The position numbers and the translations under genes were made by a program. A stretch of DNA of 64,000 nt, from assembly GCF_044704955.1 (NCBI RefSeq), contig NC_092003.1, positions 7,812,001-7,876,000 on the forward strand, written 5' to 3'. Each line of letters begins with the position of its first letter. Positions within the stretch are counted from its first letter, which is position 1. Origin of the DNA: Pristiophorus japonicus (lineage: Eukaryota). The notes beneath the pieces are model-generated. The model was not told the origin of the DNA and did no database searches. It saw only the letters and a list, made by a program, of their open reading frames with translations. Positions 38,809-50,272 of this stretch are shown here, one piece after another.

Positions 38809-38897
38809 TCTTGCCTGAACGAATGGAAAAGATTCCAGGGCTCCTAAGAAGCCCCCACAATTTTTTTTCCAATGCAATTTGGACTAGTTTTGCTTAC

Positions 38898-39096
38898 TTC
38901 TCGATCAGCATGGCCTGCATGGGTGGGGGGATCTGGAAGAGGAGCTGGTTGATGAGCTTGGGAGGACTGTGCAGCAGCCTCTCCAACATCTGGAAGGCGC
39001 GGTAATGGTCCATCGTGTCGCTCTCCAGGACGTCCGGGGTGGTGCCGGCCTGCTCCAATATCCCGCTCTGCACCCGGATTGCCACGGCATCGTTGA
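38898..39096 (-). CDS. FIBP: FIBP coding exon 2 (199 nt)
   Basis: Acceptor ttccacag|, donor |gtaagc. Peptide [16 protein letters not shown]...[23 protein letters not shown]...MLIEK. Confidence 0.97.
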
Positions 39097-40508: not shown

Positions 40509-40603
40509 AAAGATGAACATCGAAGACACGTTTCACCGTGCGGGCCCACGCGGACCGGATCACGGCTCGGTCAGCAAACGGCGGCCGTGCCTCAGCCCTT
40601 TAC

Positions 40604-40688
40604 CTGAATAGCCATCGAGCCAGAGCTGATACACGTCCTTGTCGATCAGCGTCGTGTTCCCCACAAACACGTCCAGCTCCACCGCCAT
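40604..40688 (-). CDS. FIBP: FIBP coding exon 1 (85 nt), [28 protein letters not shown]
   Basis: Kozak GCCATGG. Peptide matches the vertebrate FIBP N-terminus. Donor G|GTAAAG, phase 1, fits exon 2. Confidence 0.97.
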
Positions 40689-40842
40689 GGCCCAGCCTCT
40701 CTGGTCGTCCGTCACCGGGTCACCGCCCGCTGCGGCTGGGAATAAACTCCCTGCCTCACCCCTCACCCCCCGGGTCACCGCCCGCTGCGGCTCGCACACA
40801 CTACCGCGGCCCACCGCCAATACTGCCGGCTAATGACCCACT

Positions 40843-41345
40843 TCGCCCCTGTTGCTATGGGATTTTCCCCCCAGCTCCTGTTGCTATGGGAACAGCCCCC
40901 CAGCTCCTGTTGCTATGGGAACAGCCCCCCCCAGCTCCTGTTGCTATGGGATTTTCCCCCCAGCCCCTGTTGCTATGGGATTTTCCCCCCAGCTCCTGTT
41001 GTTATGGGAACAGCCCCCCCCAGCTCCTGTTGCTATGGGAAAGCCCCCCCCCAGCTCCTGTTGCTATGGGAACAGCCCCCCAGATCCTGTTGCTATGGGA
41101 ACAGCCCCCCAGCTCCTGTTGCTATGGGAACAGTCCCCCCCCAGCTCCTGTTGCTATGGGAACAGCCCCCCAGCCCCTGTTGCTATGGGAACAGCCCCCC
41201 AGCTCCTGTTGCTATGCGAACAGCCCCCCCCAGCTCCTGTTGCTATGGGAACAGCCCCCCAGCTCCTGTTGCTATGCGAACAGCCCCCCCAGCTCCTGTT
41301 GCTATGGGAACAGCCCCCCCTCAGCTCCTGTTGCTATGGGAACCC
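40843..41345. repeat. 29-31 bp minisatellite, 17 units, core CTGTTGCTATGGGAACAG (RFX X-box-like)
   Basis: Units counted directly. Ten carry an intact GTTGCTATGGGAAC. Confidence 0.9.
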
Positions 41346-41399
41346 TCTGTGCCGGGCTCCCGGGCCACAATCCTCCCCCTGGAGCCTGTGTGAATCTGA

Positions 41400-41580
41400 A
41401 AAACACCACAACAACCGGGAGTCCGTCCGGGTCAAAGCCGCCCGCCAATCAGAGAGGCGAATGTCGGGTGACCTCGCGCACTTTGCGTCAGTGGGCGGGA
41501 CCTTCCGGTGAGGGCGACCCAATAACAACGCAGCGGCCCAGGCGCGTCACCGCGCATGCTCCGTCCCGCCTGAGGGAGCG
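41400..41580. promoter_or_regulatory. CpG-rich core promoter upstream of FIBP
   Basis: CCAAT at 41445 and 41519, CRE-like TGCGTCA at 41484, GC box at 41493, ETS TTCCGG at 41503, NRF1-like CGCGCATGC at 41551. Confidence 0.65.
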
Positions 41581-41870
41581 GGACACGCCCCTAGCAACTG
41601 GACCCAGCCCCTAGCAACTGGGACACGCCCCTAGCAACTGGACACAGCCCCTATCAACTGGACACGCCCCTAGCAACTGGACTCATGCCCCTAGCAACTG
41701 GACCCAGCCCCTAACAACTGGACCCAGCCCCTAGCAACTGGGACACGCACCTAGCAACTGGATCCAGCCCCTAGCAACTGGGACACGCACCTAGCAACTG
41801 TCTAGCAACTGGACCCAACTCCATGCAACGGGGTCCAACCCTTAGCAACGGGACCAGTCCCTAGCAACGG
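41581..41870. repeat. ~20 bp minisatellite, ~15 units, core CCCTAGCAACTGG (RFX5/X1-like)
   Basis: Directly visible tandem units. Confidence 0.9.
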
Positions 41871-42129
41871 GAGAAACTTCCTTGCTTGCTGGCCCAACGA
41901 TTAAGGGGAAGGAAGCCGGCGGCCCCCGACTCAGGGCGATACAACAGGAACCGAAACAAAGACTTGGCGGGAAACGTTATCAAATCAAACCCGCACCCTG
42001 CCGCCCTCCAGCCCTTCCGCCAGCTCCGTCCCCGGGGACACGGAGCCCCGGGTGGGCCTGTTGGCATCATGCGGCCCAGCGGGCCTGTGCCGGCCCTGTG
42101 AACGGGCGATCCCGTCAGTCCCACACTCC

Positions 42130-49621: not shown

Positions 49622-50272
49622 ATGAGCACGGGAGACCTCTCGCTCTCTGGGACGACGGGCGCAGCAGACGGTGAGACGCTGCCGCCGGACCTGGGCCGGG
49701 TGGCCCAGGAGGAGCTGCTGAGCTGGGGCAAAGTGCAGCTGGTGCAGCAGCTCCGCCGCGCCGAGGCGGACAAGGTGGCGGCGCTGGTGCAGCGGGGCCG
49801 GCTGATCCAGGAGGTGAACCGGCAGCTTGAGGGCCACCTGCTGGAGGTGCGCCAACTCAAGGCCGCCAACCAGCGCCTGCGGGACGAGAACCAGGAGCTG
49901 CGGCACCTCTGCTGCTTCCTGGACGAGGAGCGGCTGAAGGCGCGGCGCCTGGCCCGCCAGTGGCAGGGCTTCGGGCGCCACGCTGCGCGGGTGATGCGGG
50001 AGGACGTGGGCGGCTACCTGCGCAAGCTGGCCGAGCTGGAGCAGCTGCAGGGGGCCCTGGCCCAGGACAACCGGGACCTGCAGGAGCTGTGCCTCCTGGC
50101 GCTGGACGCGGCCGCCCAGGGGAACCCCGGCCAGGGCCCCGGCGCCAGCCCGGCCGGCTCGTCCGACCTCAACCTCCCCTGCGGGCCCCGGGACCTGGGC
50201 GACGGCAGCTCCAGCGCCGGCAGCGTGGGCAGCCCCGACCCACTGCAGCTGGCCTGCTCACCCGAGGATTAG
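49622..50272 (+). CDS. CCDC85B: Coiled-coil domain-containing protein 85B (DIPA), single coding exon, 216 aa
   Basis: ALVQRGRLIQEVNRQLEGHLLEVRQLK, ENQELRHLCCFLDEER and C-terminal CGPRDLGDGSSSAGSVGSPD..LACSPED match CCDC85B. Head-to-head with FIBP as in mammals. Confidence 0.95.
   Translation: MSTGDLSLSGTTGAADGETLPPDLGRVAQEELLSWGKVQLVQQLRRAEADKVAALVQRGRLIQEVNRQLEGHLLEVRQLKAANQRLRDENQELRHLCCFLDEERLKARRLARQWQGFGRHAARVMREDVGGYLRKLAELEQLQGALAQDNRDLQELCLLALDAAAQGNPGQGPGASPAGSSDLNLPCGPRDLGDGSSSAGSVGSPDPLQLACSPED

Follow-up and report, generated by a model that had tools for sequence, protein, structure and literature searches.

Two minisatellites carrying RFX-type words flank a putative FIBP promoter core in Pristiophorus japonicus

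FIBP, its transcripts and the two arrays

The window is the whole stretch of DNA that was analyzed, 64,000 nucleotides in length, from 7812001 to 7876000 on contig C29. A protein encoded in this genome is 100% identical to one labelled Pristiophorus japonicus, a shark. Its minus strand carries FIBP, which was identified by seven Pfam FIBP matches lying in exon order (Table 1). The match on exon 1 covers 40602-40688 (minus), and RNA contigs in three runs of one study are spliced from 40604 to exon 2 at 39096. Together these place the region at the FIBP promoter, as the original prediction had it. Runs X5-X7 were classed as RNA because they are spliced. A CCDC85-family gene lies on the opposite strand. 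We take it to be CCDC85B by human synteny, FIBP and CCDC85B presumably being head-to-head in human as well. The GA-rich segment 47600-48260 holds a CRE-like word as well as a duplication of 91 bp and is likely the CCDC85-family gene's own promoter or first exon.

Table 1. Features of the FIBP locus (window positions) and RFX-word arrays at or near other gene starts
Feature	Position	Strand	Description
FIBP exon 2	38882..39096	-	range of Pfam match; acceptor end 39096
FIBP coding exon 1	40604..40688	-	ATG 40688, splice 40604; PF05427, E 2.4e-10; RNA contigs
Unique 5'UTR or proximal promoter	40689..40842	-	one CCAAT (40817), two CCGCCC
Left minisatellite	40843..41343		17 units of 29-32 bp, mean 29.9; 10 full X-box matches
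Unique CpG-rich core	41344..41580		about 240 bp; two CCAAT, two CRE-like, GC, ETS and NRF1-like words
Core word CCAATCAG	41445		
Core word TGCGTCA	41484		
Core word GGGCGG	41493		
Core word TTCCGG	41503		
Core word CCAAT	41519		
Core word GCGTCA	41544		
Core word GCGCATGC	41552		
Right minisatellite	41581..41871	+	15 units of about 20 bp; RFX5/7-type half-site
CCDC85-family single-exon ORF	49622..50272	+	PF10226, E 5e-70; head-to-head with FIBP, about 9 kb off
Array at ABI2-like gene			about 110 bp before ATG (first exon confirmed)
Array at DPY19L1-like gene			230 bp before ATG (N-terminus confirmed)
Array at NR2C2AP			in intron 1; exon confirmed, probably the first exon
Array at Ig-domain ORF			16 bp from ATG
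Array at L040			30 bp into intron 1 of a gene
Arrays at L037 and L043			beside two unnamed first exons
Array at L036	L036:4154-5373 (contig C7:556.7-557.9 kb)		24 units of 38 bp, each with GC box and RFX half-site

The left array lies 155 bp and the right array about 900 bp upstream of the FIBP ATG. Unit counts given earlier (17 units of about 30 bp with 10 intact, and about 15 of 20 bp) were reproduced. In the left array GTTGCTATGGGAAC is exact in 10 units, GTTGCTA (the TAGCAAC half) is present in 16 of the 17, and the second half-site is altered in 6. The right array consists of about 11 regular 20-bp units followed by 4 degenerate ones; TAGCAAC is exact in 12 of its 15 half-site-like units and CCTAGCAAC in 10. 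By exact-word match the two arrays together hold 28 copies of TAGCAAC, on the minus strand at left and on the plus strand at right, so that the half-sites do point away from the core. Both arrays are tandem repeats at or near the transcription start, each with a factor word in most units. The core words were found at the places proposed, except that the Y-like CTGATTGG occurs only as its reverse complement. The names CRE-like, GC, ETS and NRF1-like are our own assignments. An X-box-like word is absent from the unique promoter DNA outside both arrays, 40689-40842 included. In the FIBP 5'UTR a stretch of 23 bp is directly duplicated (40717-40795), perhaps the first two copies of a third array.

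RNA contigs from exon 1 extend to 40896 at a depth of about 200-230; the DNA contig breaks there too. The interior of the left array is covered by short RNA contig pieces (depth 2-12 per copy), and 41290-41424 by one RNA contig from one run. Cover is zero at 41425-42100 in X5-X7, which is uninformative on the right array or a divergent transcript. RNA contigs cannot show transcription starts or levels, and the safe reading is therefore that some transcripts cross the left array, coming from the core. The left array is thus likely to be transcribed, at least in part as 5'UTR, and not to lie wholly upstream. FIBP probably has starts in the core as well as near the gene-proximal edge of the left array, around 40850.

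In DNA run X1 the depth of the left-array word is 2.3-fold (6 copies in the assembly) and that of two right-array words 1.5-fold (1 copy) and 3.3-fold (2 copies); no contig spans either array. One right-array unit in this run differs at 2 bases. These values at most hint at length polymorphism of the arrays.

TRF gave 73 rows for the window, in which minisatellite arrays number 22 and tandem repeats make up about 26% of the non-N bases. With 22 such arrays, two near one gene are not unusual; it is unusual that both of those near FIBP carry an RFX word. All 8 matches of a 21-mer from the left unit across the 5.9-Gb genome fall at the FIBP left array, and 3 of the 5 matches of a right-unit 17-mer fall at the right array, the other 2 being isolated singles. 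Both arrays therefore grew locally, in agreement with the proposed amplification by tandem duplication. A dispersed repeat or satellite family was rejected as their source, the units not being found at many loci. The stretch was located in a single organism, and a metagenome scan with FIBP exon 2 as the query returned no relative.

RFX-word arrays across the genome

Three tandem CC[A/C]TAGCAAC words gave 292 genome matches, and a shuffled word gave 1483. Up to contig C14:103 Mb, each of the two words marks 10 array loci. RFX-word arrays are therefore not over-abundant. The raw match count was rejected as a measure of enrichment: the reversed control, with 2 matches against 292, holds CpG, and the fair shuffle gave more matches. 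A third shuffled word gave one array among the matches listed.

Among the matches listed there are 28 other RFX-word loci (25 families), which served as the test set. The control set comprised 39 loci, of which 37 were usable (18 families); 18 of the usable loci are one 33-bp satellite, and L088 and L089 were dropped for lack of a 3-motif cluster. Triple TAGCAAC gave 3141 matches; of the 100 listed, most consist of one 15-bp unit in a dispersed element, and these we set aside.

A CpG-island-like flank was found at 13/28 RFX-word loci and 6/37 controls (p=0.009) by a fixed rule that was drafted after most test flanks had been viewed. An island with at least 2 motif classes was present at 5/28 versus 1/37 loci (p=0.049), and the strictest rule, at least 3 motif classes, gave 2/28 versus 1/39 with no significance. 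Judged by eye and unblinded, 8/25 RFX-word families and 1/18 control families lie at gene 5' ends (p=0.038). The claim that RFX-word arrays occur at promoters thus gains support from an enrichment at p=0.04 that was not scored blind. The remaining 17 of the 25 families are intronic, coding, repeat-embedded or unclear. The gene at L040 is presumably EXOC7; PDB and Pfam searches on it returned no match. The L036 array ends exactly where the spliced first exon begins in RNA contigs, and among the arrays it is the most promising candidate for a promoter formed by the repeat itself.

Other tandem structures were seen at these loci. L043:5780-6270 is an 85-bp repeat with a YY1-like word just upstream of a promoter; the first intron there holds a 44-unit RFX half-site array, and the promoter core keeps one single half-site. 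At L077:1711-3500, in a gene that looks TGF-beta-like to us, an internal exon is flanked by an RFX-word array and about 15 GC boxes in a row. The sole control array at a promoter (L056:4350-5000) lies in the first intron of an unnamed gene; NRF1, CRE and GC words accompany it. L019:4740-5247 and L020/L009 are 44-bp tandem SINE/LINE tails with an X-box-like palindrome at the unit junction and a C/G switch from unit to unit.

The conservation of TAGCAAC was compared with that of the spacers, leaving out arrays of fewer than 5 units and duplicate family members. The median log2 ratio of word to spacer mismatch is -2.0 in 22 arrays versus +0.08 in 14 pattern controls (p=0.001). An in-silico null built on 37 other array families gave -0.67 and -1.04 (p=0.0006 and 0.006), and retention matched for divergence gave p=0.045. 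At FIBP, mismatches in word versus spacer number 1/119 versus 17/304 in the left array and 4/105 versus 14/127 in the right, the events being non-independent. With end units removed the controls are protected too (0.036 versus 0.078 in the spacer), and the test arrays show 0.030 versus 0.108. Inside the word, the gradient GCAAC < TA < CC is not significant (p=0.10). Promoter and non-promoter arrays retain the word equally well (-2.10 versus -1.97, p=0.49). There is, then, a modest extra constraint on TAGCAAC in arrays. It is compatible with binding at promoters or enhancers, or with array growth from pre-existing clusters of the word.

Origin and possible function of the FIBP arrays

The reading that we prefer, with a probability of about one in two, is that native X-box words to either side of the core multiplied where they stood, and that RFX likely still binds them. 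Two unrelated minisatellites, each on an RFX-type word, would then flank the FIBP promoter core, having grown in place from X-box words of the native promoter. RFX1-3 dimers would occupy the left palindromes and RFX5/7-type complexes the right half-sites. RFX on the arrays may add to FIBP promoter strength, and the gain would probably saturate well below 28 sites. As far as the sequence allows, tuning of FIBP by array length is plausible.

Both words match published X-box words, the RFX1-3 palindrome and the RFX5/RFX7 half-site, as had been proposed (PMC11344851; this and the other papers are cited from portions of their text). Functional X-boxes tend to lie no more than 500 bp from a start, upstream or downstream (PMC5838959), and given a start in the core, both FIBP arrays lie within or near this range of -500 to +500. 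In mouse-neuron reporters, promoter activity was obtained from tandem and from spaced RFX motifs (PMC4971761). The promoters of mouse Abi1, Abi2, Dpy19l1 and Dpy19l2 have RFX peaks (PMC7498320). Mouse Fibp, Exoc7, Nr2c2ap and Hps6 have 0 entries in the portions of the RFX1-3 tables searched (PMC7498320), and Xenopus fibp shows no induction by Multicilin in three tables (12 of 17 supplementary files of PMC5245798). For Fibp, these two results count against conservation of RFX control. No link between the arrays and cilia emerged from the mouse RFX1-3 tables or the Xenopus Multicilin data searched.

It is possible, though rather unlikely in our judgment, that the arrays are neutral swellings, that is, random duplications of promoter DNA in a repeat-rich genome whose extra copies are inert, the X-box words having been caught because they are promoter words. 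The tandem-repeat content of the window (22 minisatellites, 26%) agrees with this, as do the other promoter words that have become tandem (the GC-box run at L077 and the YY1-like repeat at L043), the lack of an excess of RFX-word arrays over the shuffled word, and the 6 of 17 left units without a second half-site. However, the retention of TAGCAAC relative to spacers exceeds what array selection explains, and two different RFX-word arrays lie at most 240 bp apart, though there are about 25 families among the matches listed. Assuming about 20,000 promoters, a rough estimate puts the chance of such a pairing well under 1%. A quite improbable origin for the left unit is the hairpin tail of a SINE or LINE, whose arms, joined by tandem duplication, would have formed an accidental X-box look-alike. 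The sole other loci with a tandem full X-box (2 among 10 genome matches) are indeed 44-bp tail arrays, which mix GTTCC and GTTGC units and lie off promoters, and the FIBP left unit agrees with these arrays at 20 of 21 bases, of which 7 lie outside the searched motif. Against this, the FIBP flanks and core have no match among 630 kb of repeat-rich loci, no remnant lies beside the array, and the 9-12-base middle of the left unit is unlike the tail loop. A tail origin is silent on the right array, and an accidental birth is compatible with RFX binding.

An MHC class II-like S-X-X2-Y module or a helically phased RFX array was also considered and is hardly credible. X1-, X2- and Y-like words are all present, and RFX5/7 sites are often near CCAAT boxes (PMC11344851). 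On the plus strand, however, the reversed Y at 41445 is followed by X2 at 41484 and the first X1 only at 41590, more than 100 bp on. The known module is 59-68 bp long and of fixed order (PMC4243378); the earlier X1/X2/Y reading thus fails on order, strands and spacing. The periods, taken originally as roughly 3 and 2 helical turns, measure 2.85 and 1.90 turns. The FIBP periods of 29.9 and 20.0 bp fit a 10.0-bp turn and not one of 10.5, and helical phasing was rejected because 25 array periods of 19-40 bp are unphased (Rayleigh p=0.26 and 0.37).

If RFX binds, as the preferred reading of in-place amplification holds, the arrays are natural multi-site versions of a motif that alone starts transcription in reporters, and they sit where ordinary genes begin, on DNA that mutates fast. 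They would be a ready source of heritable expression variation in sharks and offer about 25 loci for comparing site number, spacing and output. If the arrays are inert, the case would show how readily promoter words become tandem where a genome is rich in repeats, and that a motif array by itself is weak evidence.

Comparison with known systems

Promoter VNTRs that carry factor sites are known already (PMC8024321, PMC8594686). Human eVNTRs within 100 bp of a start are twice as likely to track expression, and 65% of eVNTRs show a positive correlation, which the authors read as added factor sites (PMC8024321). FIBP shares with them minisatellites near the start site; in the human cases both alleles and expression were measured, whereas the FIBP arrays are known from sequence, with a unit whose RFX word recurs across unrelated arrays. 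Judged by their layout, the FIBP arrays would work like an expression VNTR. The R6 minisatellite of apple MdMYB10 multiplies a promoter binding site, and output rises with copy number (PMC8594686). That system is a plant one, with a single array of an autoregulatory MYB site and a demonstrated function; at FIBP there are two arrays of RFX words.

The left units at FIBP are the X-box palindrome with one or two changes and the right units carry CCTAGCAAC (PMC11344851), near the start site and CCAAT boxes as X-boxes are (PMC11344851, PMC5838959). In the parts of these two papers used here X-boxes are single promoter boxes, whereas FIBP has arrays of 15-17 units with candidate sites. In synthetic reporters with neither TATA nor INR, repeats of the RFX motif are enough for promoter and enhancer activity (PMC4971761); those constructs are artificial, 87 bp long and assayed in mouse neurons, and FIBP presents a natural pair of 500 and 290 bp. 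The MHC class II enhanceosome has like kinds of words and an unlike order, strand and spacing (PMC4243378). No description of natural RFX-word arrays was found in the literature searched, mainly freely accessible titles and abstracts. New here are the two-sided FIBP case, a controlled sample from across the genome, and RNA support for two loci.

We propose, as an unlikely but distinct extension, that cartilaginous fish genomes have a class of minisatellites, independently born and nucleated on RFX words. RFX binding would keep the word, may favor growth in the germ line, and would give length-tunable promoters or new starts, with FIBP as the extreme case.

Some minor observations concern RFX words in other settings. 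Short tandem units of the GTTGCTAGG type lie inside the open HPS6 frame as a coding VNTR (L027:1401-1552), and a second RFX-word array is found about 2.4 kb upstream of that gene. In a Pfam scan of 112 flank ORFs, HPS6 alone was above the cut-off. The 15-bp TAGCAAC unit occurs in 3-5 copies at many genome loci, for example at C1:131314540 and 131320270 (L024). These units often form same-strand pairs about 5.5 kb apart and, judging from this spacing, resemble paired LTRs.
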